Assembly (NCBI GenBank): GCA_044892505.1
Contig: CM097884.1
Span: forward strand, 62,001 to 126,000
Direction of reading: 5' to 3'
Source: Schmidtea nova
Taxonomy: Eukaryota
DNA length: 64,000 nucleotides
The notes under the pieces were generated by a model. The model saw only the letters and a list, made by a program, of their open reading frames with translations, did no database searches and had not been told where the DNA came from. The position numbers were made by a program, and so were the translations under genes. Positions within the stretch are counted from its first letter, which is position 1. Each line of letters starts with the position of its first letter. Below, piece after piece: positions 31,300 to 63,149 of the stretch.

Positions 31300-34200
31300 G
31301 ATTAGTAGACTCTAAAATCCTAAAAATTCAATTTTTTAAAATAAACTTGTTAGAGGCAAATAAATCGCATTCATTATTTTCCTTTTGAATTTGATTACTT
31401 GGCTTATAATTCCTAATTTTAGAGTCTCAAACAACTTCACAATCAAGTGATATGCTATTTAAACAAATATTTCTACTCGAGGCTATTTTTTAATTTCGAA
31501 ATAAGTATCTGTGAGAGAAGCAGGAAAAGATATATATTCGAGCAAAATTGAAAGAAAATTCAAAACTCGAAATCTAAATTAAATCAATAAAATCAAATAG
31601 TCTACAATATAAATAAATCACCCTAGCGTAAAGATCTTATCAGTGACCCTGATCAATTTCGAGTAGGTAGCGATCAGTAATAAATCATTATCGATTTTTT
31701 AACAAATATACTTTTGCAAGTCAGTTCTCTTTGCAAAATCTTATCTACCCTTGTAGGTTTTCATTTTCCGAGGTCACATAAATAAGTTTTGGAGTTAACT
31801 TTACTTCTACGAAACCCATATGGGTAAATGTTCACAATAGTTATTGTGATCATTTTAATACTTTAATGATTTGATACTTCGACCATTCATGACACCACTC
31901 CATTTGCAATTAAAAAATATTTGATATTTATCATGAACACAATTGATAGTTTAGATAGATTTTTTAATAACCTTTCGACAATTAATATCTCATAGTAAAA
32001 ATATTTTATTTTTCTCTCAGGTATATAAACTAGAATTTTGAATAAACAATGGAAAGTTAAAGCATTGCTGAGAAAGAAAGAGACCGAACATCAAAATGAG
32101 CACATATCACCTATCGATAGTCCTTGAACCCATAGAAATTTATCGATCAATTAATGTTCTGATAAGAGCGCTCATTTTTAAGAGTATTTCGCCCAATAGT
32201 TACATTGCCAAAACTATAAGTCATCGTGAGCTCACTTCTACCTACTGCTGGCTACATTATGCAATAATAAAATCTTCTTTGGAGTAAAAAAAATTGATTT
32301 CAACCTGTTTCTAAAGAAATACTTATAATAATGTACAGTTATACGGACTAACAATAATTTTTTATGCAATATTCTGTCTTGTGAGATAAAGAAGGTATTA
32401 AAACATTAACTCAAATTCTTTGAAGAATATCTATGGCCTTGAGTTGTATTAAGATTAAACCCAGTCTCGTCTAGATAGAATTGATTAAATAAATTAACAT
32501 TTATATCAATAATCGAAAATGTACTCCTAACTTATAATATTTGGAAATCAGCGACGACTGTAATTTCTTTACTTTTTTCCAAATTTAATTTTCTAAGGCT
32601 TTTTGATACATCAGATCACGAATTTGTAATATATTGGCTAACAAGTACTTCAGTTAATTCTTTTTGAGTAAAAAGAGGATCATCCTGAACTGAATTAGAA
32701 ATAATTTTCATAGTACACGAAAGCGCAATTAGTTACTTGCCTGATTTTTAAGGAATTGTATTTTATTTCAATCGTTTTCATCGCAAATATCAATTTTTCT
32801 AAAGCAACTATAAACAGTTTGTTCTGATAATTGAACAACTCTTGCTATCTCCTTTGCACTGTTTATATCCTCTAATATTTTTATATTTTTTTCTAATTTC
32901 TTTATGCCTACTGATGTTCATTTTTCGGAATTACATTGAAATAACTTCCGTTGAATCATTATTTGTCATGTTATGACATAAATTAATTTGATCCACAGAT
33001 ATTAGACATAATTGATTTTAGACAAAAATGTTTTTAGACATAAATGCTTTTAGACATAATTGATTTTCGACATAATTGTTTTTGAGTTTTAAAATTTCAA
33101 ACCGTTAAATATGCCGAGTGTAGCGAAAACCAGAGAAGGAAAGCTTATGCTTGTAGACGATGAATTTGAGTATCATTTAAACTCAAAAACACATCAAGCA
33201 ATAAAGCATACTGGTCATGTACGAAAAAAAGATGTTTGTAAAGCCAGGCTAGTAACAAATTTTGATGTTGAGCAAGAGATAATTGTTTTTAAATCCACGA
33301 ACCACGTGCACTTGGGAGATCCTTCAAGTAAACTTGTCAGATCACTGTCAAACACAATGAGGGGAAAGGCAAAGATGTTTCCAAATGTTGCACCATCTGC
33401 AATTATTAGAGAAGAGCTTCGAGAAGTAGGATATTCGGAAGTGATTTTAGATATACCTGAGACTTGTACGCTTATAAGAATGGCTAATAGAGCTCAAAAC
33501 TCTACAAGGCCTAAGTTACCTGTTTCTTTAGCGGAATGTAAAATTGCATTTTCTTATAATCAAACAATATCTGGAGACCTCTTTCTGAGATTTGACTCGG
33601 GTGCAACCGATCCCAATCGAATATTAATATTTTATTCTGACGTTGGCTTAAGTTCTTTGTCAAGAAACAGCCAAGTATTTGGAGATGGTACTTTTGATAC
33701 CGTTCCGTCTATATTTTTCAGCTTTATACAATACATGGAAACATTTTTGGCTTTAGCTTTCCATGTGCATATGTACTATGTTCTCGTAAGAATCAAACAA
33801 CATATGACTTAATTTACTCTCGTATTATAGATGCAGTGGCAAGCACAGGCGTGACATTTAATCCTGAAGTACTAATGATTGATTTTGAAATTGCCGCTAT
33901 CAATGCATTGAAAAATATGATTCCTAATACGCTTGTAAAAGGATATTTATTTCATTTAAACCAGTCATGTGGAGAAAAATTCAAGAAGTTGGTTTATCGG
34001 AGTAGTAGGAGGACATGAGGAGTCTGGATCCGTATGAGTTATCGCGCGTTTTTTGGCGACATTTTTAAAGTGTGTTTTGTTTAAATGTTTGGAATTTATT
34101 ATTATTTTTATTTTATTATTATTTTATTTATTTATTATTTTTAAATTATATTATTTTTTTTTTAATTAGTTATTTATTTTTTAAATATTATTAATTTACT

Positions 34201-34483
34201 TTTGTTAGTATAATTTATTATTGTTATTATAATTTTTGAAACACTTCAATGATAAACGTTATATGAAAGCACTACTCAAAATATTTTAAGAATATATCAC
34301 ATGGTGAAATACGATAAATATTAAACTAATTATTTATTATTATTATTATTAATATTACTATTATTTCTATGACGTAACCATAGTTTCTAAAAATTATTAC
34401 CCAAATTATAAAAACAGACTGAAACTAATCTGTACAATATATAACTAAATAATTAAAAAACAAAGTTTTTCAATAAATTTTAT

Positions 34484-37400
34484 TTAAACAAAACTTTCAT
34501 CTTGGATATCTCCAGGTGGATCTTGGAATTGTTGATCTGGATTGATTCTTGGATCGGTATGTTGAAATATAACCAAGTCACCTTCCATATAATGGCCATA
34601 TGCCAAGCTTTTATTTTTCGCCACCCATTTCCTTTTATCATCTGCGTTTGTTAGTGCAGTCTTTTCATGTTTAATAGTAAAAAGTTGGTGATTTTTACTT
34701 GTGATTCTCGTTTGGGGAACAGAAAATATTTGGTTATTATTAAAACAGTCCAGGTACGACTGATGCTTTATGTCAGTACCCGCTAATGTTGCCCCCTTAG
34801 CTTTATTAGTTTCCTTGTCACCTAAAAGACTATAACATTTAGGTCTAAGAAACACCCACTCCTCGTATTTAAGCCCTTTATTCTCATCTTTGAACTTGCC
34901 AATGACAGAATCAAGGTTCCTACTGTATAGTGGGTGATTCGGATCGTAATTAGAAGTGTCAAGTAAGTTATCTCTTATCATGGCCGGTAAAAGAATATCA
35001 AGCTTACAATTTCTAATCTCAAGAAAAAACGAATCGGTGTCACCAGCTACGATGTTAATTTCGCAGTTGAATTCGTTACGATATTTTTGTAACTCTTCAT
35101 ACTGCAGCTGGTACATTCTAAGTTTAGATAGATCCAGTACAGTTTGACCAATGTAGTTGGGTCTATCCAAACACACCGATTCCTGATTCAGCAAGACGGC
35201 AACCAAATCATCGTCAATTTCGAAAGTCCTTTTAAAAGTTGGCTTAGAAGTATATGTAATCAGCCTAGAAGCCGAATTACATAATCTTAAATTTATGCGC
35301 TTTTTAAGATTCTCTATGGTTTTACCGTAGAGACTATTATTTAATAATTTATAATAATTTTTACCCAGAGCATTACTTGATTCTGCTCTAAGTCTGGTAT
35401 TGGTATCGATGTAATCCTTAAAAATACATGCTTGTTTAAATTTAATTGCCCTATGGACATGAGTTATTTTTACTCCAAGAGAAAGAAAAAGTTTGAGAAG
35501 TCTCCAATGAAGAACATAGTTCTTCTTGGGATAATGCGTAAGCATCAACTTCTCAACCTTTGAGCCAGGTGGACACATCTTTTCAGCGGCAACTGGCAAA
35601 TCATCCAGCTTGTCGTGAATCGAATCAGGAATTTCTAAATCGACTTCTAATGTAAATCCAAATGTTAATACTTCTAAATCAGCAGATTCACAGTAATAAA
35701 TTATTTTATTTAATTTTTCCCTATCAGTTACCCATTTAAATTCTTTATAAGGTAGTTTTTGGCTTAAAGCCCACCCATATAAATTATTTATATCTATATA
35801 AAGAAGCTCAATGTCGTCGGAGGATACTACATGGTGTTTGTTAACAAATGTTAACCCACCACGGATCCCCCCTTCGAAAAAATTATACATCTCCATATCT
35901 TGAAACAACTCGATAGGAAATTTCAAAGTCATCAAAGCTGAATTCCATGACATGCCTGGAATTCCCAAGAAATTAAGAGGCTCAAGTCGGTTATGTGCAA
36001 TGGATTTTGCCCTAAATTGCTGAAAAAAGTCGGCAAGTAAGAAAACATCCAATTTCAGGTATAACATCATATAATCAAACAATGTTTCACAATTAAATTC
36101 ATCCCATATATGTTGAGCTTTTTCATACTCATCGATATTAACTCCTTCCCAAATCGGTGGCAACTCGTATGTATTTTGTAAAACCTCTAAAGAAGTTGCA
36201 AAATTATATGGGAATATGCCTTTGGATGTAATAATAGTCCCTATAAATTCGGATGAAGTAAGAGGAAAATCTGTTAAAGTCTTTACAGCATCGTTTAAGC
36301 TACAGCTTACAAATTGGCAAGAATCGATAAATTTAATAGTTAAACTATCGACTCTTGCATATAAGGTCAAAAACTTTTCACTGGTAGTAGGAATACAACT
36401 TATATCCCATTTATCGAATTTATTTAAACCATACTTGAGAATATGATGTAAATCATATCCGCGTAAATTATGAAATAGTACAGGCATAATGAATCTTATT
36501 TGCCGAGAAAAATTGCATTTAGAGCAAGCTGCACCCAAGTATTTACCTGTATAATGGTCATGATCTTTAACCGGATTTTTCAAAGGTTTATTACACAAAT
36601 AACAAATTATAGAACTACGAAATGATCTTATTTGTGCAGGAGAAAGATATTCCATTTTCTTTTTGGAATTATTTATAAAGTAAGGTAAAACTACTTTTTC
36701 TCCTATATCATTGATTTCAGTCAAAAACTCTTCTACACAGTTAAGACCATAAAAGCTTTTATACGATTTTTCGCCAGTAAAGTTATTAATAAGCAACAAG
36801 CCAGCAGAAATAGGTAAGTGGCGTTGAAAATACTTATCGTCCTTGGGTAAAACAGCCTCAAAATCGGCATATACAACGAAAGGAGGGGTAACAATTTTTG
36901 ACCAATCTTTAAATTCCAAGTTCTTATCTGAAGGCAAAGTGTACAAAGTTGTACCTAACTGATTTTTTGTGCATAAAGTCTGATGTTTCTCAAAAGCTTC
37001 AGTCAATCTAAAACCATTCAAGCAGCGCTCACACCAAATGCTCTGAACCCTAACATTGGTAACCAAAGAATTTCTACAATTCAAAAGCCTGTCAAGATTG
37101 GTAACTGCAATATAATGAAAAGAGTCACTTTCCTCTAACAAAATCAAATTAATTGGAGTGCCACCTACAACCTTTGACCTATGAATAATATCTACAAATG
37201 GATGTTTCATGACTTCCTCTTCCTCAGTAATATAATTTAGATCATACTCGTCATATGAAAGAATATTTATTGCCAACCAGGGGTTTTTCGCTTCAAATTT
37301 GGGTATATTACATAATTTCATAGGAAGATCAGAAGGATCAAACACAAGGTCTGAGGGATTATAATTATAAGACTTACTTCTATTAGATTTCACATCCTTG

Positions 37401-38185
37401 TATTTTAAAATTGCCAAAATACTATATATAAAACACAATTTATCTGTATTCTTTACATTGACAGTGCAATGTTTTGCCTTTAATGATGGTGGGGTTGAAC
37501 AAGAACCGTGACCACTCAATCTACTTATTTGCGAATATTTTGTAAGTTTAAAGCTTATTTCCTTAATTTTATTTATTGACCAATTGCTGCCATTTTCGCA
37601 GACTTTAGTCATTTTTTCACTTAATAGAGCAATACCTTCATCTAAAAAGGTATCACTCATTGGTTTTGCAGAATTTGATATTATAAAAGATTGAAATTGC
37701 TTATTCTTTTCAAATTCTACATCAATGCAAAATTGTACTTTTACATACCCCATTTTGGAAATAACTGAATTAAATTTATTTAATAAAGGTGAAGGAATAA
37801 TTAATTTATTTAAATTTAAAGAATCCACATCCATTTTAACAATGGCATGCGATTTTTTCAAATTATATTTAACCAAAGGTTCAACAGAACCGCCATATTG
37901 GACAACATGTAAATTAGGAATAACTAAAACATCGTCATTTGATGAATGGACATCTTCATCATCAGATATTACATTTATTTTAGTCGGTTTAGGACAAATA
38001 GTAACATTTCGTCGTTTACATTTATTAATTAATGCGAAAAGACTTTTCTTAGTGCATGTGAATTGATTTAAATGGAGATAATGTTGGAAATAAAAATCAA
38101 TGTAATTTATATGTTGGGAGCTCTTACATGTGGGACATAAATAGAAGGTGACTTGGTTATTTATAATATGATAGTATCGCTCCAT
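34484..38185 (-). CDS. Protein-primed family B DNA polymerase (Polinton pPolB), left-arm copy; probable upstream exons 38873-38822, 38778-38725, 38680-38576, main exon from 38241
   Basis: 1233-aa open ORF; Exo I YADFE, Exo II FHNLRGYD, endonuclease-VII-like insert CYLC...DHDHYTGKYLGAACSKCN, Pol motifs YIDINNLYG, KLLNNSLYGK, GDTDS, KAKG. Confidence 0.96.
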   Translation of the reverse strand: MERYYHIINNQVTFYLCPTCKSSQHINYIDFYFQHYLHLNQFTCTKKSLFALINKCKRRNVTICPKPTKINVISDDEDVHSSNDDVLVIPNLHVVQYGGSVEPLVKYNLKKSHAIVKMDVDSLNLNKLIIPSPLLNKFNSVISKMGYVKVQFCIDVEFEKNKQFQSFIISNSAKPMSDTFLDEGIALLSEKMTKVCENGSNWSINKIKEISFKLTKYSQISRLSGHGSCSTPPSLKAKHCTVNVKNTDKLCFIYSILAILKYKDVKSNRSKSYNYNPSDLVFDPSDLPMKLCNIPKFEAKNPWLAINILSYDEYDLNYITEEEEVMKHPFVDIIHRSKVVGGTPINLILLEESDSFHYIAVTNLDRLLNCRNSLVTNVRVQSIWCERCLNGFRLTEAFEKHQTLCTKNQLGTTLYTLPSDKNLEFKDWSKIVTPPFVVYADFEAVLPKDDKYFQRHLPISAGLLLINNFTGEKSYKSFYGLNCVEEFLTEINDIGEKVVLPYFINNSKKKMEYLSPAQIRSFRSSIICYLCNKPLKNPVKDHDHYTGKYLGAACSKCNFSRQIRFIMPVLFHNLRGYDLHHILKYGLNKFDKWDISCIPTTSEKFLTLYARVDSLTIKFIDSCQFVSCSLNDAVKTLTDFPLTSSEFIGTIITSKGIFPYNFATSLEVLQNTYELPPIWEGVNIDEYEKAQHIWDEFNCETLFDYMMLYLKLDVFLLADFFQQFRAKSIAHNRLEPLNFLGIPGMSWNSALMTLKFPIELFQDMEMYNFFEGGIRGGLTFVNKHHVVSSDDIELLYIDINNLYGWALSQKLPYKEFKWVTDREKLNKIIYYCESADLEVLTFGFTLEVDLEIPDSIHDKLDDLPVAAEKMCPPGSKVEKLMLTHYPKKNYVLHWRLLKLFLSLGVKITHVHRAIKFKQACIFKDYIDTNTRLRAESSNALGKNYYKLLNNSLYGKTIENLKKRINLRLCNSASRLITYTSKPTFKRTFEIDDDLVAVLLNQESVCLDRPNYIGQTVLDLSKLRMYQLQYEELQKYRNEFNCEINIVAGDTDSFFLEIRNCKLDILLPAMIRDNLLDTSNYDPNHPLYSRNLDSVIGKFKDENKGLKYEEWVFLRPKCYSLLGDKETNKAKGATLAGTDIKHQSYLDCFNNNQIFSVPQTRITSKNHQLFTIKHEKTALTNADDKRKWVAKNKSLAYGHYMEGDLVIFQHTDPRINPDQQFQDPPGDIQDESFV

Positions 38186-40749
38186 TAATTTGTGGCAATC
38201 GTTATGATTTGACGACTTACAATAATTCGCATAAAATTTACCTTAATATGAAATATCTTTAAATTTATCAAAAAATCATTAAAATAAATTAATAGAGATA
38301 TGAATTATTAGAAAATAAATATGAAATTTAAGATAAATATGATTTAAATATAATAATTACTAAAATAATTTAAATTTAATATAAAACTTATTACAAAATA
38401 ATATTAAAGGAATTTGTTTAAATTAAATGTTTACGTAAAGTAAAGATTATTTAAATTATTACAAAATATTACCAAAATTATATATTTACAAATATTTTAC
38501 TAAAGTTATTTACTAAATTGATTAAAATAATTATCGAAATATAATTAAAATTAATTAAAATTAATCAATACTTACATTGAACATTCAATACCACATCAGG
38601 TATAACTCCATTATTCACAATATTCTCGTTATTAACAATCTCAGCTTGTACGGTAGTTTGTTCAGTCATATTTGCATCCCCTAAAGTAAAAGTTAAATAA
38701 TTTATTAAGTTAATGATCAAGTACCATTTTCTTCTGTATTTTCTAACATCGATTTCCCAATTGCATTATTGATATTACCTAAATTAATACTAAATGATAA
38801 TAAATTAAAAAATAAATTTACCATTTTCTTTCCCACTTGGGTTTTCGTTCATAAAACTTGTTATCATGTTCATTTTTAATGTTTATTATTTGTTAAAGTG
38901 AATAATGAATGAAAAAGGTTTGTTTATATATCAAAGTTATTACACACACATAACCTTTGACCAATAAAAATCGAGTAAGGGGTAGGAAATTTATTCTTAT
39001 TAGCCAATCAGAATCGAGTAAGAGGCAGTAAAGGTATTATTATCATTAGATAGAGAATTATGACTAATTATATATTACGTTGCAGTATTTTAAAAAAACT
39101 AGAAAAGTTATTTCAACAAATTATAATACACATCAAAGTTATAAAATATTTCAATGAATTGCATGCATGTCATATGATTAAAATATATTAGACTAAATAT
39201 TTCAGTAAATTACGTCTAAATTATATTACAATTCAATAATTACGTCAGTTATAAAAAATATTTTAATTAATTTTGATAAAATACATTAGAATTGTCAATA
39301 ACACACACAAAACTTTTATAATTTTCATTAGTATAGAAATTAAATTATATCTACACATGATTACAATAAATATTCGATAAATCTATGCTAAATAGTCGAA
39401 AAAATCCAGTATTTTATTACAAAACACGTGTGTAACACGAAAAACGACAACTTTTAGATTTCGAATCAAGCCATTTTATAGAAATTTAAATTTTATCTAT
39501 ACTTTATTACAATGAAAACTCAATAAATTTATTTTATATACACGAAAAATGCAAAATTAATTACAAAACACGTGTGTATTACAAACACACTAGCAAACTA
39601 ATTTTCTAATCAAGCCATTTTATAGGAAATTAAATTTTACTTATACTTTATTACAATGAAAACTCAATAAATTTATTTTATATACACAAAAAATGCAAAA
39701 TTAATTACAAAACACGTGTGTATTACAAAATACGACAACTTTCAGATTTCTAATAAAGCCATTTTGTAGACATTTAAATTTTACACATATAATATTACAA
39801 GGAAAACTCAAAAAAGTTATTTTATATACATGAAAAATGTAAAATTAATTACAAAACACGTGTGCATTACAAACACACCAACAAACTAATTTTCTAATCA
39901 AGCCATTTTATAGGAAATTAAATTTTACCTATACTTTATTACAATGAAAACTCACTAAAGTTACTTTATATTGTTAAAAATTTGAAAATTCAAAATAAAA
40001 CACGTGTGCATCGCAAAATACGACAACCGTCAGAATTCCAATAAAGCCATTTTGTAGACATTTAAATTTTATACATATAATATTACAATGAAAACTCAAA
40101 AAAGTTATTTTATTTAGGTGAAATATAGAAATTTAATGACAAAACACGTGTGCACAACAATATACACAACATTTTGAATTTTTAATTCAGCCATTTTGTA
40201 GACAATAAAATTCTGTCTATCTATTGTTTCACTAAAAACTCGATCGGGCCGGTTTATCGACTCGAAAAAGGCGTTTGAAGGTTTGTAGTAGGAGGCTATG
40301 TCCGGTCTGCCGCCCCCCCCCATGTGTGAACTCAAATACTTTTTTATTAAATTTAAAATAAAATTTTATATTTAAAAAAATTAAAACAAAAAATTCATAT
40401 AATTAAATAAAATATTCTAGTTATTTAAAACAAAAATTTCACTTAATTTAAACAAAAATTCACTTAATTTTAAAAAAAAATTCACTCAATTTAAAAAATA
40501 TACGAAATTACGTAATTATATACAAAATTACATAATTATCGGGTTTTATTGAGCACACTTGATTACGCAATGATTACGTAACTATGTGTGCTACATAAAA
40601 CCCCGAGCGATTACGTAATATACACACATGGGGGGTAGTGGCGCAGACAGGACACATCCTCCTACTACAAACCTTCAAACGCCTTTTTCGAGTCGATAAA
40701 CCGGCCCGATCGAGTTTTTAGTGAAACAATAGATAGACAGAATTTTATT

Positions 40750-41540
40750 GTCTACAAAATGGCTGAATTAAAAATTCAAAATGTTGTGTATATTGTTGTG
40801 CACACGTGTTTTGTCATTAAATTTCTATATTTCACCTAAATAAAATAACTTTTTTGAGTTTTCATTGTAATATTATATGTATAAAATTTAAATGTCTACA
40901 AAATGGCTTTATTGGAATTCTGACGGTTGTCGTATTTTGCGATGCACACGTGTTTTATTTTGAATTTTCAAATTTTTAACAATATAAAGTAACTTTAGTG
41001 AGTTTTCATTGTAATAAAGTATAGGTAAAATTTAATTTCCTATAAAATGGCTTGATTAGAAAATTAGTTTGTTGGTGTGTTTGTAATGCACACGTGTTTT
41101 GTAATTAATTTTACATTTTTCATGTATATAAAATAACTTTTTTGAGTTTTCCTTGTAATATTATATGTGTAAAATTTAAATGTCTACAAAATGGCTTTAT
41201 TAGAAATCTGAAAGTTGTCGTATTTTGTAATACACACGTGTTTTGTAATTAATTTTGCATTTTTTGTGTATATAAAATAAATTTATTGAGTTTTCATTGT
41301 AATAAAGTATAAGTAAAATTTAATTTCCTATAAAATGGCTTGATTAGAAAATTAGTTTGCTAGTGTGTTTGTAATACACACGTGTTTTGTAATTAATTTT
41401 GCATTTTTCGTGTATATAAAATAAATTTATTGAGTTTTCATTGTAATAAAGTATAGATAAAATTTAAATTTCTATAAAATGGCTTGATTCGAAATCTAAA
41501 AGTTGTCGTTTTTCGTGTTACACACGTGTTTTGTAATAAA
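40750..41540 (+). repeat. Six-copy 144-bp tandem array (mirrored at ~39413-40203) with CACGTG and AAAATGGC in every unit
   Basis: CACGTG at 40803, 40947, 41091, 41235, 41379, 41523; AAAATGGC at 40756, 40900, 41044, 41188, 41332, 41476. Confidence 0.92.
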
Positions 41541-41930
41541 ATACTGGATTTTTTCGACTATTTAGCATAGATTTATCGAATATTTATTGTAATCATGTGT
41601 AGATATAATTTAATTTCTATACTAATGAAAATTATAAAAGTTTTGTGTGTGTTATTGACAATTCTAATGTATTTTATCAAAATTAATTAAAATATTTTTT
41701 ATAACTGACGTAATTATTGAATTGTAATATAATTTAGACGTAATTTACTGAAATATTTAGTCTAATATATTTTAATCATATGACATGCATGCAATTCATT
41801 GAAATATTTTATAACTTTGATGTGTATTATAATTTGTTGAAATAACTTTTCTAGTTTTTTTAAAATACTGCAACGTAATATATAATTAGTCATAATTCTC
41901 TATCTAATGATAATAATACCTTTACTGCCT

Positions 41931-42030
41931 CTTACTCGATTCTGATTGGCTAATAAGAATAAATTTCCTACCCCTTACTCGATTTTTATTGGTCAAAGGT
42001 TATGTGTGTGTAATAACTTTGATATATAAA
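41931..42030 (+). promoter_or_regulatory. Putative PolB promoter: two inverted CCAAT boxes plus TATA (mirrored in left arm)
   Basis: Duplicated CTTACTCGATT..ATTGG modules 43 bp apart (ATTGG at 41945 and 41988); TATATAAA at 42023, ~50 nt upstream of ATG 42080. Confidence 0.6.
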
Positions 42031-42767
42031 CAAACCTTTTTCATTCATTATTCACTTTAACAAATAATAAACATTAAAAATGAACATGATAACAAGTTTT
42101 ATGAACGAAAACCCAAGTGGGAAAGAAAATGGTAAATTTATTTTTTAATTTATTATCATTTAGTATTAATTTAGGTAATATCAATAATGCAATTGGGAAA
42201 TCGATGTTAGAAAATACAGAAGAAAATGGTACTTGATCATTAACTTAATAAATTATTTAACTTTTACTTTAGGGGATGCAAATATGACTGAACAAACTAC
42301 CGTACAAGCTGAGATTGTTAATAACGAGAATATTGTGAATAATGGAGTTATACCTGATGTGGTATTGAATGTTCAATGTAAGTATTGATTAATTTTAATT
42401 AATTTTAATTATATTTCGATAATTATTTTAATCAATTTAGTAAATAACTTTAGTAAAATATTTGTAAATATATAATTTTGGTAATATTTTGTAATAATTT
42501 AAATAATCTTTACTTTACGTAAACATTTAATTTAAACAAATTCCTTTAATATTATTTTGTAATAAGTTTTATATTAAATTTAAATTATTTTAGTAATTAT
42601 TATATTTAAATCATATTTATCTTAAATTTCATATTTATTTTCTAATAATTCATATCTCTATTAATTTATTTTAATGATTTTTTGATAAATTTAAAGATAT
42701 TTCATATTAAGGTAAATTTTATGCGAATTATTGTAAGTCGTCAAATCATAACGATTGCCACAAATTA

Positions 42768-45700
42768 ATGGAGCGATACTATCATATTATAAATAACCAA
42801 GTCACCTTCTATTTATGTCCCACATGTAAGAGCTCCCAACATATAAATTACATTGATTTTTATTTCCAACATTATCTCCATTTAAATCAATTCACATGCA
42901 CTAAGAAAAGTCTTTTCGCATTAATTAATAAATGTAAACGACGAAATGTTACTATTTGTCCTAAACCGACTAAAATAAATGTAATATCTGATGATGAAGA
43001 TGTCCATTCATCAAATGACGATGTTTTAGTTATTCCTAATTTACATGTTGTCCAATATGGCGGTTCTGTTGAACCTTTGGTTAAATATAATTTGAAAAAA
43101 TCGCATGCCATTGTTAAAATGGATGTGGATTCTTTAAATTTAAATAAATTAATTATTCCTTCACCTTTATTAAATAAATTTAATTCAGTTATTTCCAAAA
43201 TGGGGTATGTAAAAGTACAATTTTGCATTGATGTAGAATTTGAAAAGAATAAGCAATTTCAATCTTTTATAATATCAAATTCTGCAAAACCAATGAGTGA
43301 TACCTTTTTAGATGAAGGTATTGCTCTATTAAGTGAAAAAATGACTAAAGTCTGCGAAAATGGCAGCAATTGGTCAATAAATAAAATTAAGGAAATAAGC
43401 TTTAAACTTACAAAATATTCGCAAATAAGTAGATTGAGTGGTCACGGTTCTTGTTCAACCCCACCATCATTAAAGGCAAAACATTGCACTGTCAATGTAA
43501 AGAATACAGATAAATTGTGTTTTATATATAGTATTTTGGCAATTTTAAAATACAAGGATGTGAAATCTAATAGAAGTAAGTCTTATAATTATAATCCCTC
43601 AGACCTTGTGTTTGATCCTTCTGATCTTCCTATGAAATTATGTAATATACCCAAATTTGAAGCGAAAAACCCCTGGTTGGCAATAAATATTCTTTCATAT
43701 GACGAGTATGATCTAAATTATATTACTGAGGAAGAGGAAGTCATGAAACATCCATTTGTAGATATTATTCATAGGTCAAAGGTTGTAGGTGGCACTCCAA
43801 TTAATTTGATTTTGTTAGAGGAAAGTGACTCTTTTCATTATATTGCAGTTACCAATCTTGACAGGCTTTTGAATTGTAGAAATTCTTTGGTTACCAATGT
43901 TAGGGTTCAGAGCATTTGGTGTGAGCGTTGCTTGAATGATTTTAGATTGACTGAAGCTTTTGAGAAACATCAGACTTTATGCACAAAAAATCAGTTAGGT
44001 ACAACTTTGTACACTTTGCCTTCAGATAAGAACTTGGAATTTAAAGATTGGTCAAAAATTGTTACCCCTCCTTTCGTTGTATATGCCGATTTTGAGGCTG
44101 TTTTACCCAAGGACGATAAGTATTTTCAACGCCACTTACCTATTTCTGCTGGCTTGTTGCTTATTAATAACTTTACTGGCGAAAAATCGTATAAAAGCTT
44201 TTATGGTCTTAACTGTGTAGAAGAGTTTTTGACTGAAATCAATGATATAGGAGAAAAAGTAGTTTTACCTTACTTTATAAATAATTCCAAAAAGAAAATG
44301 GAATATCTTTCTCCTGCACAAATAAGATCATTTCGTAGTTCTATAATTTGTTATTTGTGTAATAAACCTTTGAAAAATCCGGTTAAAGATCATGACCATT
44401 ATACAGGTAAATACTTGGGTGCAGCTTGCTCTAAATGCAATTTTTCTCGGCAAATAAGATTCATTATGCCTGTACTATTTCATAATTTACGCGGATATGA
44501 TTTACATCATATTCTCAAGTATGGTTTAAATAAATTCGATAAATGGGATATAAGTTGTATTCCTACTACCAGTGAAAAGTTTTTGACCTTATATGCAAGA
44601 GTCGATAGTTTAACTATTAAATTTATCGATTCTTGCCAATTTGTAAGCTGTAGCTTAAACGATGCTGTAAAGACTTTAACAGATTTTCCTCTTACTTCAT
44701 CCGAATTTATAGGGACTATTATTACATCCAAAGGCATATTCCCATATAATTTTGCAACTTCTTTAGAGGTTTTACAAAATACATACGAGTTGCCACCGAT
44801 TTGGGAAGGAGTTAATATCGATGAGTATGAAAAAGCTCAACATATATGGGATGAATTTAATTGTGAAACATTGTTTGATTATATGATGTTATACCTGAAA
44901 TTGGATGTTTTCTTACTTGCCGACTTTTTTCAGCAATTTAGGGCAAAATCCATTGCACATAACCGACTTGAGCCTCTTAATTTCTTGGGAATTCCAGGCA
45001 TGTCATGGAATTCAGCTTTGATGACTTTGAAATTTCCTATCGAGTTGTTTCAAGATATGGAGATGTATAATTTTTTCGAAGGGGGGATCCGTGGTGGGTT
45101 AACATTTGTTAACAAACACCATGTAGTATCCTCCGACGACATTGAGCTTCTTTATATAGATATAAATAATTTATATGGGTGGGCTTTAAGCCAAAAACTA
45201 CCTTATAAAGAATTTAAATGGGTAACTGATAGGGAAAAATTAAATAAAATAATTTATTACTGTGAATCTGCTGATTTAGAAGTATTAACATTTGGATTTA
45301 CATTAGAAGTCGATTTAGAAATTCCTGATTCGATTCACGACAAGCTGGATGATTTGCCAGTTGCCGCTGAAAAGATGTGTCCACCTGGCTCAAAGGTTGA
45401 GAAGTTGATGCTTACGCATTATCCCAAGAAGAACTATGTTCTTCATTGGAGACTTCTCAAACTTTTTCTTTCTCTTGGAGTAAAAATAACTCATGTCCAT
45501 AGGGCAATTAAATTTAAACAAGCATGTATTTTTAAGGATTACATCGATACCAATACCAGACTTAGAGCAGAATCAAGTAATGCTCTGGGTAAAAATTATT
45601 ATAAATTATTAAATAATAGTCTCTACGGTAAAACCATAGAGAATCTTAAAAAGCGCATAAATTTAAGATTATGTAATTCGGCTTCTAGGCTGATTACATA

Positions 45701-46469: not shown

Positions 46470-48446
46470 ATAAAATTTATTGAAAAACTTTGTTTTTTAA
46501 TTATTTAGTTATATATTGTACAGATTAGTTTCAGTCTGTTTTTATAATTTGGGTAATAATTTTTAGAAACTATGGTTACGTCATAGAAATAATAGTAATA
46601 TTAATAATAATAATAATAAATAATTAGTTTAATATTTATCGTATTTCACCATGTGATATATTCTTAAAATATTTTGAGTAGTGCTTTCATATAACGTTTA
46701 TCATTGAAGTGTTTCAAAAATTATAATAACAATAATAAATTATACTAACAAAAGTAAATTAATAATATTTAAAAAATAAATAACTAATTAAAAAAAAAAT
46801 AATATAATTTAAAAATAATAAATAAATAAAATAATAATAAAATAAAAATAATAATAAATTCCAAACATTTAAACAAAACACACTTTAAAAATGTCGCCAA
46901 AAAACGCGCGATAACTCATACGGATCCAGACTCCTCATGTCCTCCTACTTATCGGCTCGATACATGATACCTGATAACGATGAAATTATATTATTTATTC
47001 CCATTTATTCCCGAAGTGGATCTATTAGAAACATTTAAATTATTTTCTTTAGATGCACCAAATGAATTAGAAATTTTTATTAATTTTTATGGAAAAAAAC
47101 TATATTGGCTTATCCAGAAACGAAAATGAATTCTCAATTAGAACCTGGAGTTGTTATAATTTGGTTATTTCTGGATTTAGAAGAACCAACAATGCCTTAG
47201 AAAGTTGGCATTCTAGATTTCAAAATGCTGTTCAGGTTAAGCATCCAAATATTTGGAGATTTTTAGATTTTTAGATTTTATCAGGAAAGATGAAGCTGAT
47301 AATAAAATTTTGATTCAACAATTATTTGGAGGACATCGGAAAATTAGACATCCCATTAAAAATATATCTAATAAACGACAGCAGGACAAAATAAATAGCA
47401 CAAGAATATGATCATTTTAATGTTAACGGGGAGATTAAAATATATTTGAATAATATCGGTAGATTGTTAAAAAACAATTTCTCTTATATACCAGATCCTG
47501 CAAATAATACCAATGAAGAAAATAATTAAATTTTTATTTCGCGGAATTGTGTTTTTTAATCATTTTTAAATATACAGAAATACTTGGAATATGACTTTTA
47601 TTTGTTTGAATATAAATGAAGTATTATTTATATATATCTAAAAGCATTTATGTCTAAAATCAATTATGTCTAAAAACAATTTGTCTAAAAACAATTATGT
47701 CTAAAAACAATTATGCCTAAAAACATTTATGTCTAAAAACATTTATGTCTAAAAGCATTTATGTCTAATGTCTAGGTACCATTAATTTTAATAAACTATC
47801 CACTTTATAGATTTATCATACATTATATATAAGGGCTGCTTAGTCTTTATCCCGACAAAAGCCGAAAATCTAAAACTCAGAATTTTTAGAGCCTCAAATT
47901 GTATTTTTTGAAATTAAATATTAACGATATTTTTAGGCCTTGGCTAGAGCCACATAGAATTCTTAGGAGAGCCACATCAGATGCATGATCAAACGAAGAA
48001 AACCAAACGCGCACAAAGAGCAGTTCTTGAAGTCAAGTTATATTTAGACGACGTAAAAATCGAATTACAGACAGCTCACGAAAACGTTCATCGAAGGGCA
48101 TTTGAAAGAACTGATACGGCAGATCACTTATGAAAGGTGGATAGAGACTTCACAAAAAAGTTCAGTCACACAAATTTCCGAAAGTTCAGCGAAGTCCACG
48201 AACGACGTCCAAACCAAAAGAATTAAGATAGGCGCCAGACAACGACGTTTACAGCATCAGCGAAGGTTCGCCCAACAACTATCCACCCAGATGACGCAGC
48301 TGCACTCGTTACCCGAGCTGAAATTGCTTGCCGAGATAATCTCTTAGTGATCTGACACTGTGTAAAGATAGAAAATAAAATTTTGTGTTTTAAAGTCTTC
48401 CGTTTAGTGATGGTCAGTGATGTTGTAAAAAAAATAAAAATAAGAG

Positions 48447-55455: not shown

Positions 55456-55938
55456 TTAAACAAAATTAAATAATAAATCGAGATATTTTTCATCAATTAA
55501 ATCATTATTGATTAATGAATTAATATAATTTTTAATTTCATTTACTTGATTAAAATAATCCAATGTTTTAATTCCTAATATTACAACTTTTCCACTTGAA
55601 AAAATATTAATACAAATCGGGTTATAATTTATTAATCTTAAAGCTGGAAATATTTCGGGTTCGTACCAGCACTCTGTTTTATTTTGCAATTCATATAAAT
55701 TTATGGATTTACCCATATCCAATGTTATAGTGATCGATTGAATTTTTAAATCTGAAATTTTATATTTCAAATCATCTGGTTTTAACGGTTGCTTACAACC
55801 CATTACACGGCATTTTCCCGATCTGAAAAATAAAATAGGATACTTTCCGCTCCTATCTATAACTTGCTGGGGTTTCCCAACAGGAAATAACATGTTTGGA
55901 ACTAAACACTTGCCCATATAATTAATATTACTTATCAT
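55456..55938 (-). CDS. TATA-box-binding protein (TBP)-like protein, ~160 aa
   Basis: Two TBP repeats: ISNINY...ILFFRSGKCRVMGCK and KIQSITITLDM...INLYEL...WYEPEIFPALRL...INIFSSGKVVILGIK (canonical YEPELFPGL...LIFVSGKVVLTGAK); first ATG at 55938. Confidence 0.85.
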   Translation of the reverse strand: MISNINYMGKCLVPNMLFPVGKPQQVIDRSGKYPILFFRSGKCRVMGCKQPLKPDDLKYKISDLKIQSITITLDMGKSINLYELQNKTECWYEPEIFPALRLINYNPICINIFSSGKVVILGIKTLDYFNQVNEIKNYINSLINNDLIDEKYLDLLFNFV

Positions 55939-55997
55939 TTTTATAAATTGAATAAATATAAACAATATTAAATTAATTAATAATTAATTAAATAAAA

Positions 55998-56621
55998 ATG
56001 GAATTAAGAAATGATGCAGTTTATCAAATAGTGGGCCCAAGTGGTAGTGGAAAAACATTATTTGTATGTAAATTGTTGCAATCAAAAATGTTTAAATCTA
56101 AATTCAATAAAATTTACTGGCATCGGGGAGCTGATGAAGAACATGGACTGACTCAAGATCAATTCTGTAAATTAAAAATGACAATTATAAAAGGGTTTGA
56201 TAAAAACTGGTCATCTAGACTACGACAAGGCGATGTTATAATTATCGATGATTTGTACCAAGAAGCAAATAAAGAAAAAGATTTTAATAATTTATTCACA
56301 AAAATTAGTAGACATTTAGGAGTTACTGTAATTTTCATTACTCAAAATTTATTTCATCAAGGTGGTAGTCACAGAACTCGTAATTTAAATGTTCAATATT
56401 TGGTTATATTCAAAAACCCAAGAGATGCTACAATTATTGATTTTCTAGCAAGACAAGCTTACCCTAATGATAGGAAATTCTTAATTAATTCATTTCAAGA
56501 TGCTACTAAAGTTCCTCATGGATATTTATTCTTTGATTTTACTCAACAATGTCCTGATGATTTACGTATCCGAACGGATATATTTAACGAAAAAGGAGTC
56601 ACGGTTTATAAACAAAATTGA
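55998..56621 (+). CDS. Polinton genome-packaging ATPase (A32/FtsK-like)
   Basis: Walker A GPSGSGKT, Walker B IIIDD, SRH, FITQNLF, R..NLN..YLVIFKNPRD; open 207-aa ORF. Confidence 0.93.
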   Translation: MELRNDAVYQIVGPSGSGKTLFVCKLLQSKMFKSKFNKIYWHRGADEEHGLTQDQFCKLKMTIIKGFDKNWSSRLRQGDVIIIDDLYQEANKEKDFNNLFTKISRHLGVTVIFITQNLFHQGGSHRTRNLNVQYLVIFKNPRDATIIDFLARQAYPNDRKFLINSFQDATKVPHGYLFFDFTQQCPDDLRIRTDIFNEKGVTVYKQN

Positions 56622-56642
56622 AAACAAATAAATGAAATAATA

Positions 56643-56828
56643 ATGTCATTTAAAAAAGTAATTGTCAAGTTAAATAAAGAAGCTGTTCAAAAAGCTGATC
56701 AAAAACTACTTTAAAAAGTTGATCAAAAACTTCTTAAAAAAGTTGATCAAAAATCTAAATTAGTTAAAAAAGTTGTCAAAAAGATTGGTAAAAGAAAGAA
56801 ACAAGTAAAGAAGTGGATAAAATTATAA
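56643..56828 (+). pseudogene. Lys-rich small basic protein with KKVDQKLL repeats, one premature stop
   Basis: MSFKKVIVKLNKEAVQKADQKLL*KVDQKLLKKVDQKSKLVKKVVKKIGKRKKQVKKWIKL; TAA at 56712 where the sister repeat has AAA. Confidence 0.55.
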
Positions 56829-56858
56829 ACGAAATAAATATACACAAAAATTTTAATC

Positions 56859-57188
56859 ATGAAATTTGAACGTAGTTTACCGTATTTTAATGCTTTGGTT
56901 AAAGCTCCAACAAATAAGCGAATGATAATTTTACAAGCTTTCCCACCCTTTGTTATTGATGATTTACTTGAAGTCGTTTTTAATATTGTTCATGGTAATG
57001 TAAATATTAGTAGATCAAAGAAAATTGAACTACAAAAACATAAAAATTCGCTTTTATCATTAGTGAATACCAAAAATAGAAATCTTATGCGAAAAATAAT
57101 ATATAAACAAAAGGGTGGGTTTCTCGGTACATTAATTCCAATAGTATTATCATCAATAAGCGCAATCTCATCTTTAAGAAATGGGTAA
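56859..57188 (+). CDS. Polinton small virion-type protein with QKGGF motif and hydrophobic C-terminal helix
   Basis: Open 109-aa ORF inside the structural cassette; ...L.EVVFNIVHGNV...QKGGFLGTLIPIV. Confidence 0.65.
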   Translation: MKFERSLPYFNALVKAPTNKRMIILQAFPPFVIDDLLEVVFNIVHGNVNISRSKKIELQKHKNSLLSLVNTKNRNLMRKIIYKQKGGFLGTLIPIVLSSISAISSLRNG

Positions 57189-57250
57189 TAAAATGTCTGA
57201 ACCGAATAAACATAATATAGATTTAAATATTTTAACAAATTGTTGTATTA

Positions 57251-58334
57251 ATGAAGAAAATCATGAAGAATATAAAAACGATATGGACAAACCCAAAAGA
57301 TCCCGATGGTTTTGGTTCAGTCAAAAAATTGGCAAAAAGAATAAAAAGTTCAAAGAATGAAACTCAGAAATGGTTATCTGATCAATTGGCATATAGTTTA
57401 AATAAACCAATGTTGAAAAGATTTCCTACACGCAAATATAAAACTTTTGGGGGTAACGATTTATGGCAAATGGATTTAATGGAAATGATTCCTTATTCTA
57501 AAATTAACAAGGGTTACAAATATATTTTGACTTGTATTGATGTTTTTAGCCGTTATGCACGAGCTATTCCAACAAAAACTAAATCTGCTAATGAAATGGC
57601 TGAGGCTATTGAATCTTTATTTAAAGATGGGAAGCCACATAATTTACAAACTGATTTGGGTAAGAAATTAAATTTTTAAAAATTAATTAATTTATTTTAG
57701 GAAAAGAGTTTTATAACAGCAAAGTAAAAGAAGTGATCAAAGGAATCAATCATTATTCTGTATTTTCTCAATTCAAAGCTGCTCATGTTGAAAGATTTAA
57801 TCGAACTTTAAGAGATCGTTTGAAAAAGTTTTTTGTGTATCAAGGTAACAAAACATGGATAAATGTTTTACCGAAATTATTTCCAGTTACAATCGTTCAC
57901 CGCATTCGGGATTAAATAAAATGAAACCTATCGATGTATATTCAAATAATAATTTTGATGGATGGATAAAAGATAGATTAAAATCAATTAATAAAAAACC
58001 GAAATATAAATTAGGCGATTATGTGAGAATGAGTAAAATCAGTGCTTCTCCCTTCATCAAAAATTTTGATAGTAATTGGAGTGATGAAGTATATCAAATC
58101 TCAAATGTTGATACTAATCAAAATCCTGTCATGTATACTATTTCCGATCATGAAAACAATGTAATCGAGGGTAAATTCTACGAACAAGAACTTCAAGTTA
58201 TTCCAGCTCCCACAGTTTTTAGAATTCAAAAGATTTTAAAAACCAAAACTGATGGGAAATATAAACAATATTACGTTAAATGGCATGGCTATGAAACTCC
58301 AAGTTGGATATCTGAAAAACAATTGATTAAATAA
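57251..58334 (+). CDS. Retroviral-type (RVE) integrase with C-terminal chromodomain; one intron (57660-57700) and a 1-nt frameshift near 57875
   Basis: WQMDL, YILTCIDVFSRYA, LQTDLG|KEFYN after splicing, VERFNRTL, KYKLGDYVRMS, YYVKWHGY. Confidence 0.9.
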
Positions 58335-58339
58335 ATATT

Positions 58340-59377
58340 ATGAAAGAAAACCAGTTTTATATGATTTTGCCTAGCAATGCATGTCCTCTTATTTATCCTA
58401 ATAATGAAGCTAGTAATTTTAATGTAGAATTTCAAAATCCGATTTATTTAAATAGTAATGACGATTGGGAAGTTGCTTTGATTGATTTTACTTTTGTGTA
58501 TAATTTGTTTCCGTATTATAGTAATTCTTTTATTCAAATTGAAACTAAAAGAGAAATTCAAGAAATTAGTTATTTGAGAATTAATAATCAAAATAAAACA
58601 ATTCAAGTTATAGTTTCTCAACCTAGTTCAGACACTGATGTATTTATTGAAAAATATAATTATTTAGTGATTGTTTGCCCACATGTTCCATTTAAAATTA
58701 CATTTCCAGATATTGAACATGCAAAAAGTTTTGGATTGGAAAATATATCAATTACAAGTGAAAATGATCATTGTCGTTTAAAATTACCAAAATTTACGAA
58801 TGATAATAGTCTTGAACAATTTGGAATTTTAATAAATTATGACATTAAAACTGTTAATGATTATTATTTTCAAGATGAATTATTCATAACGTCATTACCG
58901 GAATTGCAAGGATATTTAATGAAAATTAATCCATCTCCATTTAAAGAAATGAAACTTGTCAATAATGAATTGGTTAAAATTATTCTTCAGGATAATATTT
59001 CAAAAATTACTTTTGATTCAAATTTAACCAAATCTCTGGGTCTACAGAAACAAACATATACTGATACAGAAATAATTGGTGTAAAAATCCCCAAAATTTT
59101 ACAACTTCATCAGCAAATGTTCATTTACAGCAACATTATTGAACCAGTGACTGTTGGAGATGTACGAGTTCCCCTCCTTAAATCAATTTGGATCAAGAAA
59201 TATGACCAAGGCGAAGTTGTACAAATTGAAATAAAGAATCCAATGTATTTGCCGATTTCAACATCAACTATAAACAACATTGAAATCAATATTCGTGATG
59301 ACAGTGGAAAATTAATTAAATTTTCAAAAGATACAAAGACTCATTTGACTCTACATTTTCGTAAAATAAATGATTAA
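58340..59377 (+). CDS. Minor capsid protein (penton-like), copy 1
   Basis: FYMILPSN...N....F.V....PIYL...WEVAL N-terminus; FIYSNIIEPV.VGD..VPLL, NPMYLP, IEINIRDDSGK, LTLHFRK C-terminus. Confidence 0.82.
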   Translation: MKENQFYMILPSNACPLIYPNNEASNFNVEFQNPIYLNSNDDWEVALIDFTFVYNLFPYYSNSFIQIETKREIQEISYLRINNQNKTIQVIVSQPSSDTDVFIEKYNYLVIVCPHVPFKITFPDIEHAKSFGLENISITSENDHCRLKLPKFTNDNSLEQFGILINYDIKTVNDYYFQDELFITSLPELQGYLMKINPSPFKEMKLVNNELVKIILQDNISKITFDSNLTKSLGLQKQTYTDTEIIGVKIPKILQLHQQMFIYSNIIEPVTVGDVRVPLLKSIWIKKYDQGEVVQIEIKNPMYLPISTSTINNIEINIRDDSGKLIKFSKDTKTHLTLHFRKIND

Positions 59378-60392
59378 AAAAGATTTTTATGTTAATTTAC
59401 CAAGCAATTCTTGTCCATTGACACATCCCAATAATAAAGCTGGAAAATTCAATGTTGAATATCAAAACCCTATTTATTTGGGTGGTAGTTGGGAAGTTGC
59501 TCTTATGGATTTTACTTTTGTGTACAATGAATTTCCATTTTATAATAGTTCAAGTATAAAATTTATTAGAAATGAATTACATTCTAGTTATGAATATTTC
59601 AATTTTAACCAACAAAAGAAAGAATATGATATAAGTCACGATTCTAATTATTATTTAATGTATATTGATGGCAATATTTTAAATGTAAATTGTAAATATT
59701 TTCCATTTCAAATAATATTTGATAGTGTTGATGAAGCTAAAAAATTAGGGTTTCAAGAAAAAGCTGTGACATTTAATGATGAATTAAACAAAATTAAAAT
59801 TCCAGCAAATGAAAATAAAAAACTTGATGATACTATACGATTTACTATAACTTATACTTTTCCTGTTGAATACACAGATAATTTCAAAGACGATTTAATA
59901 ATAAATAATCTTACTGAATTATCTGATCAAATTGTAACTTTTTATCCACATCCATTTAAAGTGATTGATATTAAAGAAGGAAAATTAATTAAATTAATTC
60001 TTGAAGATGATATGACTAGTGTAAAATTTAGTATGAATTTAGCAAATTCGTTAGGATTAGTTGAACAAGAATTCTTTGACAAAATTATTGATGGCGTATA
60101 TTATCCACAAGTTTTAAAACTTCATCAACAAATGTTCATCTATACGAATATTATTCAACCAATTCTTGTTGGTGACATGTCAGTTCCCCTATTGAAATGT
60201 GTTTGGGTTGAAAAACATAAAAAGGGTGATTTGGTTCAAATTGTTGAGAAAAATCCAATGTATTTACCGGTCAGTTCCACATATATAAACAATATTGAAA
60301 TCAATATTCGTGATGACAGTGGAAAAATAGTTAAATTTGCAAAAGAAGACAAAACTTACTTGACATTACATTTCCGTAAAATAAATGAATAA
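59370..60392 (+). CDS. Minor capsid protein (penton-like), copy 2
   Basis: Same N- and C-terminal motifs as copy 1, divergent middle. Confidence 0.82.
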   Translation: MIKKDFYVNLPSNSCPLTHPNNKAGKFNVEYQNPIYLGGSWEVALMDFTFVYNEFPFYNSSSIKFIRNELHSSYEYFNFNQQKKEYDISHDSNYYLMYIDGNILNVNCKYFPFQIIFDSVDEAKKLGFQEKAVTFNDELNKIKIPANENKKLDDTIRFTITYTFPVEYTDNFKDDLIINNLTELSDQIVTFYPHPFKVIDIKEGKLIKLILEDDMTSVKFSMNLANSLGLVEQEFFDKIIDGVYYPQVLKLHQQMFIYTNIIQPILVGDMSVPLLKCVWVEKHKKGDLVQIVEKNPMYLPVSSTYINNIEINIRDDSGKIVKFAKEDKTYLTLHFRKINE

Positions 60393-60792
60393 TCCAGATA
60401 TTATCAGTTTCTATAGCAACAGCCAATCAGGTGGAGAATTACCGTATTTTGTAGGTAAGCAATATGGAACTGGTTGGTTGAAAACGATAGGTAGATTTGC
60501 ATTACCAATTCTTAGACGTATTGGAAATTTTGGTATGAAAACTGCCAATGATGTGTTAAATAATAATTCAAAGATTTTACCTGCACTAAAATCAAATGTC
60601 ATTTCTGAAATTAAAGATTCATTGCCCGATGTGATTCATCATTTGCCACAAGTAATTAGTAAAGTGACTGATGTGTTTAACGAAAATAAAACTGAAAATA
60701 AACAAAATGGCGGAATTCTTAAACGAAAAAGAAATATGAAGAAACATATAAACAAAAGAATGAAAGGATATGGAACAATATTTGAAAAATGA
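60385..60792 (+). CDS. Polinton core/maturation-type protein with QxGG motifs and an amphipathic helix
   Basis: QSGG, QYGTGWLKTIGRFALPILRRIG, QNGG, basic C-terminus; lies between the penton and MCP genes. Confidence 0.7.
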   Translation: MNNPDIISFYSNSQSGGELPYFVGKQYGTGWLKTIGRFALPILRRIGNFGMKTANDVLNNNSKILPALKSNVISEIKDSLPDVIHHLPQVISKVTDVFNENKTENKQNGGILKRKRNMKKHINKRMKGYGTIFEK

Positions 60793-62015: not shown

Positions 62016-62104
62016 GCAGAGCTCAAACAATACTCGTTTAATATAAACTAATTTTAATTAATTAATAAAGTAAATGAAGTAAGATTTATTAATTAAAAAA
62101 GTAA

Positions 62105-62483
62105 ATGAAGTAAGATTAATTTTAAATAATTAAATTTTATTGATTTTAGTTCAATTCAGGTAGATCAGATTGCTAGAAAATTGATTGGATCGGAATTTCT
62201 AGGAGTTTTTCCTCTAGATAAAATACCGTATATAGATGTGAATAAAGCATTGATTGTCAATACTCAATCATCAAATCTCAAAGGTGAACATTGGCTTGCA
62301 ATTTATAATAAACCCGATAAAATATACGTGTTTGATCCAATGGGATTTTATTATCCACCGATATTATTGAAAAAATTATCGTCAATGTTAAAACCAATAG
62401 AATATAACAGAATTCGATATCAAAATCCAATGACAAAAACCTGTGGGCAACATTGTTTAGCTTGGCTAAAATATATGAAATAA
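62105..62483 (+). CDS. Adenain-like cysteine protease, two exons (62105-62109, 62150-62483)
   Basis: ATGAA|GTAAG...TTTTAG|T gives MNSIQVDQI; catalytic residues GEHW, FDPMG, QNPMTKTCGQHC are intact. Confidence 0.9.
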
Positions 62484-62569
62484 AACTTTTTATTATAAAA
62501 CGACTTTTATTATAAAACGACTTTTTCTATTTATGGTATTCACTAATACAAAAGTGAATTTTTATGTTT

Positions 62570-63091: not shown

Positions 63092-63149
63092 TGTAAGTAT
63101 TTATATATTGATTAAATATATTATTATCAATTAAATGTTTATTTTTTAT

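Follow-up and report, generated by a model that had tools for sequence, protein, structure and literature searches.

What kind of element is a palindrome of almost 13 kb with Polinton ends, and how did it come to be inserted in one piece? The question is raised by positions 34001-46949 of a 64,000-nucleotide stretch of Schmidtea nova DNA (contig CM097884.1 of assembly GCA_044892505.1, positions 62,001 to 126,000; here, the window), where an original prediction made from the letters alone had placed a palindromic Polinton with pPolB as its only gene. The palindrome belongs to a high-copy class with hundreds of integrated copies, carrying either its own pPolB type or a second one. Its 380-bp centre is bounded by inward-facing Polinton termini, and half-length monomers are integrated with target site duplications (TSDs) of their own. 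Fold-back synthesis on such a monomer, followed by insertion by the integrase of complete Polintons, is probably how the palindrome arose. The internal termini, the integrated monomers, and the recombinant makeup of the arm had all been missed by the original prediction.

Architecture of the palindrome

Self-BLAST of the window returned a sole long inverted match, 34004-40328 against 46949-40623 (99.84% identity over 6328 nt). Together with the reading of the junctions, it bore out a 12.95-kb insert of inverted ∼6.29-kb arms with AG...CT ends, flanked by TATCGG as a direct repeat at 33995-34000 and 46950-46955 (Table 1). Across the outer 6294 nt, 3 substitutions distinguish the arms, and the left end alone has an additional AGT, so the two outer termini, predicted to be identical, are not quite so. 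A one-sided extra triplet at the terminus recurs in three other copies (L030, L107/8, and L119/20), and the copy number of the 144-bp repeats is often unequal between both arms of one element. The proposed 362-bp spacer should rather be delimited as a 380-bp unit (40287-40666) that begins and finishes with the terminal 9-mer and whose ends are Polinton termini.

AG...CT termini with a 6-bp TSD, by which Polinton/Maverick elements are recognized, are present in the insert and its relatives. A survey of open reading frames in the insert agreed with the prediction of two open pPolB genes pointing outward, each with a frame of 1233 amino acids (34484-38185, minus strand, and 42768-46469, plus strand). 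It found no retroviral-type integrase frame and no capsid protein, packaging ATPase, or protease gene in 34001-46949, all of which occur in complete sister Polintons, and no other ATG-initiated frame of at least 100 amino acids except an antisense 113-amino-acid frame within each pPolB. The insert is a non-autonomous Polinton derivative, not an autonomous Polinton.

The left flank is a copy of a FLYWCH-MULE transposase, for which the genome search gave 21 matches. Three of the three paralogous MULE copies examined run via a single TATCGG into the right-flank sequence. The direct TSD and these empty sites uphold the claim that the element was integrated as a unit.

Table 1. Features of the palindromic insert and its target site (window positions)
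Feature	Position	Strand	Remark
Target, decayed FLYWCH-MULE transposase	33111..34000	+	resumes after 46949
TSD TATCGG, left copy	33995..34000	+	single copy in 3/3 paralogous empty sites
Left outer terminus	34001..34012	+	one AGT triplet more than right end
Left arm	34001..40286	-	terminus, pPolB, leader/promoter module, 144-bp repeats
pPolB main exon, left	34484..38241	-	first in-frame ATG 38185, 1233 amino acids; splice acceptor inferred from sequence
Recombination junction	38249..38264		similarity to complete sisters stops, inside predicted intron
Predicted leader exon	38576..38680	-	ATG 38669; phase-1 donor fits phase-1 acceptor 38241
Predicted promoter	38923..39043	-	TATA-like box, two 43-bp repeats with CCAAT boxes
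144-bp tandem repeats, left arm	39332..40212		∼5.7 copies
Central 380-bp unit	40287..40666		between two inward-facing Polinton termini
Right arm	40667..46949	+	mirror of left; its 144-bp repeats at 40741-41621
pPolB main exon, right	42712..46469	+	ATG 42768, open
Right outer terminus	46941..46949	-	
TSD TATCGG, right copy	46950..46955	+	

Copies in the genome

We searched the 1.25-Gb genome with exact motifs, whose counts are lower bounds that depend on motif conservation. The 24-nt outer-terminus motif gave 83 exact matches, 82 of which (one singleton being excluded) make 30 inverted pairs, 20 of them at 11-16 kb spacing. Every one of ten fetched pairs had its own 6-bp TSD; seven were full palindromes, and three were shorter or internally deleted. 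Four longer pairs also had TSDs (4/4). Pairs 21-43 kb apart were considered as complete masters and rejected, as 4/4 were long only through nested insertions.

The motif spanning the junction of arm and centre gave 901 matches in the genome, and sampled copies had their own, different TSDs, in keeping with the predicted satellite class. Among 20 centres from the start of this list, 9 were two-armed with the window type of pPolB, 5 were two-armed with a second type (58% amino acid identity to the window pPolB), and 6 were mixed or disrupted. The nine window-type centres had pPolB of 95-96% amino acid identity and variant termini, and three were partly disrupted. The second-family terminus gave 719 matches, and 10/10 further pairs were palindromes with TSDs. 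By a rough estimate from motif counts, the palindromic elements likely total several megabases. A third kind of giant palindrome is gene-less (L043-L050, L055, and L056; 11.7-14.5 kb; 746 motif matches) and consists of a sister TIR (terminal inverted repeat), the sister end without pPolB, and repeat-rich filler, with leader exons directed inward.

The central-unit motif gave 1073 matches. Since other elements have it as their TIR, these matches often form inverted pairs spaced 12-15 kb apart. Following up ten of the pairs or sites revealed four gene-less giant palindromes and three complete Polintons (L041/2, L051/2, and L053/4) of 14.8-15.3 kb that encode pPolB, PRO, MCP, PZ, mCP (two), INT, PX, ATPase, and TBP. 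The first 9 bp are common to the palindrome and these complete sisters. Genome-wide, the pPolB motif was about tenfold more frequent than the sister-integrase motif (1299 versus 127 matches). Several independent insertions lack an integrase of their own; such integrase-less insertions with TSDs, and complete sisters in the same genome, sustain the proposal that the palindrome is helper-dependent and was integrated in trans.

The central unit and half-length monomers

The right end of the central unit matches the first 94 bp of the complete sister TIR, and integrated monomers use the same end. In folding predictions, the unit forms a hairpin with its terminal 9 bp paired (-68.7 kcal/mol; z of -11 with 30 shuffles); z was -11 to -12 in the window and L128 and -6.7 in L172. 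We sought monomers among 20 unpaired junctions and then in 20 further regions, and identified five with matching 6-bp TSDs (L128, L136, L138, L172, and L140/L175; 5.2-8.7 kb). A monomer consists of an outer terminus, one arm with pPolB and promoter module, and the central unit, and stops at the far, sister-TIR-type terminus. Its right end has a second, inverted copy of the terminus ∼380 nt inward.

The first 30 listed central-unit loci, classed by eye, had arm sequence past the far end in 19 cases and host DNA in 4; the rest were deleted or rearranged. The centre was also considered as a stand-alone miniature inverted-repeat transposable element, and 0/30 of these loci were of that kind. Second-family palindromes of the L105/L109 kind have another central unit, again between Polinton-type termini. 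The mini unit found at the centre of many second-family palindromes (compare L105 and L109) is represented in the window by its terminus and its array of 120-bp repeats (52637-53300).

A recombinant arm and exchange between elements

The window pPolB is 95-96% identical in amino acids to that of the complete sister Polintons, and its database homologues at 55-66% identity carry PF03175. It has the usual exonuclease and polymerase motifs. A Pfam scan of the protein reported Endonuclease_7 alone (E value, 1.4e-4), with an endonuclease-VII-like stretch at amino acids 527-559, and a PDB sequence search returned 0 matches. Judging from the sequence, the pPolB frame likely starts in upstream exons.

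The stretch of the arm that resembles the complete sisters starts close to the terminus and ends at 38249-38264, which is upstream of the predicted phase-1 acceptor (38241) by a few bases. The predicted leader exon, TATA-like box, 43-bp CCAAT repeats, and 144-bp repeats form a module that was not found in the sisters examined. A module 80-95% alike lies upstream of the second pPolB type, where the junction is likewise in an intron, and the leader exon is common to the window family, the second pPolB family, and the gene-less palindromes. Because the module is common to these families and the junction falls in a predicted intron, the arm is a recombinant, in which a shared promoter module was joined to different polymerase exons within an intron whose splicing is predicted. 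The proposed copy-back derivation is supported as the likely origin of the palindrome, but not as plain copy-back of one Polinton end. A search of public sequencing runs with 33700-38900 listed no RNA run among its matches, a result uninformative on expression.

Three loci (L037/8, L073/L074, and L200) hold hybrids with mixed ends, or arms of two families, and at each of them the 6-bp TSD copies match. In L037/8, the left end is of the palindrome type and the right end of the sister type; the gene set is full and a TSD is present, so the ends are interchangeable for integration. At L073/L074 (G000:C1:28053743-28066405), the left arm is of the second family and the right arm of the first, and one TSD encloses both; such unlike arms imply that recombination between molecules occurs too. 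One palindrome groups with two complete elements in the pPolB tree (support of 100/99 in one tree and 96/98 in another), and monomers and complete elements are interspersed among palindromes, a grouping that points to repeated exchange.

In all families, terminus positions 6-30 (e.g., window 34004-34033 and 40287-40316) are a mosaic of short blocks common to families and to inner and outer ends. Despite this mosaic, an element's outer ends are usually alike.

Arm symmetry and the fold-back model

Under a fold-back model, symmetry should hold as far as the final arm base beside the inner termini and should be lacking within them. We could score 42 of 45 central units, and the results fit: the arm-side 10 nt beside the inner termini were identical within the element in 36/42 units versus 31% between elements, and the first 30 nt inside the inner termini were identical in just 3/42. 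In most copies, either arm matched the other arm of that copy most closely (0-0.53% apart). A template break should, under the same model, be copied into both arms; among 16 two-armed copies, pPolB was open in both arms in 8, broken in both in 8, and broken in one only in none. Two copies of one end, made from one template and symmetric to the fold point, are what copy-back yields, although in-place gene conversion is also compatible with this pattern. A 4.6-kb palindrome with its own TSD (L011) is folded at a short inverted repeat within pPolB, an example of fold-back at another inverted repeat and of subsequent integration. A 6-bp TSD accompanies integrated monomers, palindromes, hybrids, and complete elements alike.

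Private changes in one arm (36 nonsynonymous, 5 stops, and 8 synonymous) looked neutral, as expected after insertion, and those in both arms (48 nonsynonymous, 1 stop, and 19 synonymous) gave a P value of 0.13 against neutrality. Changes common to several copies numbered 124 nonsynonymous, 1 stop, and 156 synonymous, and all 8 changes unique to the subclade of the window were nonsynonymous. The signal of selection for an element's own pPolB is mixed, with 8/16 copies open and 8/16 broken. Two separate insertions (L001/2 and L009/10) have one pPolB break in common; this shared break and the broken half of the copies suggest that pPolB may be dispensable in cis. The original prediction had also called the element replication-competent, a claim not supported in view of the 8/16 copies broken in both arms, the two insertions with a shared break, and the abundance of gene-less palindromes.

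In the mechanism we propose, protein-primed strand displacement from the left origin would free a strand whose 3' end is the far terminus. This 3' end would pair with the internal terminus copy 380 nt away (∼45-bp stem, with the terminal 9 bp perfect), which would be preferred to the far left terminus as the longer and nearer match. Its extension would copy the whole arm and yield a hairpin of 13 kb, open at an end that serves as a normal origin, and one further round of replication would give a linear palindrome, then inserted by the integrase. If an inner terminus were used, the monomer would result again; monomer and palindrome would thus pass into one another, and both arms would be renewed from one template in each pass. 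Action of pPolB in cis is possible but not required. Recombination between extrachromosomal copies likely takes place in their common central module and would exchange pPolB arms and termini among families.

Alternative explanations

Several observations weigh against this model. The genome alone does not fix the direction, from monomer to palindrome or the reverse, and gene conversion after insertion could also yield matching arms, the both-arm changes not being significantly non-neutral. The unlike arms of L073/4 mean that not every insertion requires fold-back. The gene-less palindromes and L011 have centres without inner termini, which leaves the inner terminus as just one of several fold-back sites. 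A matching TSD was lacking at three monomer-like ends (L123, L130, and L188) and at a reverse-type candidate (L171), and no complete Polinton with the second-family pPolB was present in the 10 pairs and 10 further sites. It could be that palindromes arose rarely and transpose whole with very long TIRs, that their arms are homogenized by chromosomal gene conversion, and that monomers are integrase by-products at the inner terminus. The nonsynonymous changes and frame breaks among the both-arm private changes are compatible with a neutral origin, and all TSD-confirmed monomers could be excision products. Yet symmetry ends sharply at the inner terminus though the 45-bp inner stem is ∼75-85% alike, the 49 one-arm private substitutions accumulated neutrally, the large nested insertions observed are one-sided (L021, L024/5, L027, L030, L032/3, and L195), and integration came after folding at new fold points such as L011. 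We regard this explanation as rather unlikely.

It is very unlikely that the palindrome is the polymerase segment of a divided (bipartite) Polinton, supplying pPolB to partners with capsid and integrase genes. The tenfold excess of the pPolB motif would suit such a segment, as would the strong predicted promoter module and the alleles that occur in at least two palindromes and are absent from four integrase-bearing copies (79 nonsynonymous versus 67 synonymous, below neutral). All four integrase-bearing sisters examined, however, have their own pPolB, no capsid segment lacking pPolB was found, both arms are broken in half of the two-armed copies, and the 8 subclade changes of the window are all nonsynonymous; the purifying signal may itself stem from unsampled complete copies (4 of ∼127 sampled). 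Perfect long inverted repeats are known from some long-read data, but the chance that the palindrome is an assembly fold-back artefact is practically negligible. Such an artefact would invert the flank repeat, whereas TATCGG is direct and the empty sites are continuous; the arms differ in substitutions and repeat number, the same centre occurs at hundreds of loci with different TSDs, and 71-81% of words of 33700-38900 were present in four public runs (which may include the source sample). Fold-back on a half-length monomer remains our preferred reading.

Length and possible packaging

Palindromes with unrelated cargo of three kinds (the two pPolB families and the gene-less stuffer) are mostly 11-16 kb, and the half-length monomers are in the minority. 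Terminus pairs had medians of 13.4 kb (20/30 within 11-16 kb) and 14.0 kb (24/34), four gene-less palindromes measured 11.7-14.5 kb, two partial relatives 7.7-7.9 kb, and complete elements 14.7-15.3 kb, a picture affected by deletion after insertion and by the selection of gene-less examples from pairs spaced 12-15 kb apart. To be packaged, an adenovirus genome must be of about unit length. By this analogy, the length match suggests selection for packaging and offers a concrete test of it. We tentatively raise the possibility that an animal polintovirus has these palindromes as its natural defective-interfering satellites, in which half-length replicons are doubled by fold-back to the length of the helper and packaged in its capsid. 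If true, they would be the genomic footprint of real Polinton virions in an animal.

Relation to known systems

The window element works like a snap-back defective genome. Adenovirus gutless genomes formed via inverted repeats, and the end repair of adenovirus minichromosomes, are precedents for end duplication. There too, protein-primed strand displacement and an internal inverted repeat duplicate one end of a helper-dependent molecule. Those forms are engineered and not integrated, whereas the forms described here are natural and heritable and would be inserted by a retroviral-type integrase and interconvert with monomers.

Copy-back and snap-back defective viral genomes (PMC6140465) are likewise self-complementary, contain one end twice, and outnumber the helper; they are mainly transient products of RNA viruses, whereas here the molecule is DNA, fixed in the germ line, with polymerase arms exchanged between families. 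The invertron-type linear plasmids pAL2-1 and kalilo (PMC1864894) are also linear replicons centred on pPolB, with TIRs and with long inverted repeats around insertions, but they are mitochondrial, lack integrase and TSD, and have inverted repeats of host DNA. With Polintons/Mavericks (PMC10748475 and PMC8097293), the element shares AG...CT ends with an AGT repeat, a 6-bp TSD, and an outward pPolB next to the terminus. It differs in lacking INT, ATPase, capsid, and protease genes, in its two internal termini, in its half-length integrated forms, and in inverted repeats of 6.3 kb that include a gene, versus Polinton TIRs of 100-1,500 bp (PMC10748475).

The closest counterparts are non-autonomous or fragmentary Polintons and Polinton-like viruses (10.64898/2026.07.28.741278 and 10.1101/2024.01.15.575659), which include nematode remnants with pPolB and TIR without INT (10.1101/2024.01.15.575659) and TIR-retaining fragments in a protist (10.64898/2026.07.28.741278). 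They too have lost core genes, keep ends and TSD, can have pPolB next to a TIR without INT, and are suggested to depend on complete copies; they are, however, described as remnants or deletion forms and not as whole-element palindromes with two pPolB genes at hundreds of copies. The available text of PMC6431247, PMC8532177, PMC3014272, PMC1864894, and PMC4028283 describes no such architecture, and a literature search by title and abstract found no description of palindromic pPolB-only Polintons, Repbase and supplements lying outside that search, so that a database entry may exist. Two scans of viral contigs gave no confirmed relative. An inverted repeat of at least 300 bp was present in 0/80 metagenome loci, which is uninformative since short-read contigs collapse palindromes; INT or capsid genes were present in 17/19 metagenome loci of at least 8 kb.

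The general Polinton cycle is described as excision, replication by pPolB, and reintegration (10.64898/2026.07.28.741278). Knowledge of Polinton replication comes from models alone, and the detection of polintoviruses in active reproduction has been named an important experimental challenge (PMC4028283). Here, a precursor-like monomer, a palindromic product, and a complete helper occur in one genome, with the fold point defined to the base, so that strand displacement, fold-back priming, and integration in trans become directly testable on natural DNA. Palindromes of this kind would escape surveys that need pPolB and INT together (PMC8097293 and PMC10748475) and would collapse in short-read assemblies. 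The vertebrate survey (PMC8097293) made that joint requirement, and the word palindrome is not used in its available text.

Neighbouring elements

A complete 15.1-kb Polinton of another family begins in the window (53973-64000) and runs on to G000:C3:131112 (L019:6112), with the TSD CCTGTT and TIRs ∼78% alike. It encodes a TBP-like protein, ATPase, PX, INT, two mCP, PZ, MCP, PRO, and pPolB, and more Polintons lie next to it in L019/L020. We rejected this neighbour as the parent of the palindrome; its pPolB is just 72% alike in nucleotides, and closer sisters exist. Its TATA-binding-protein-like gene (55456-55938, minus strand; Pfam TBP, E value of 7e-17) also occurs in sister families and in some metagenome relatives. 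Polintons and palindromes are often nested in one another (L007/8, L021-23, L024-26, L030-34, L063/4, and L103/4), which suggests target preference or safe-harbour clustering.

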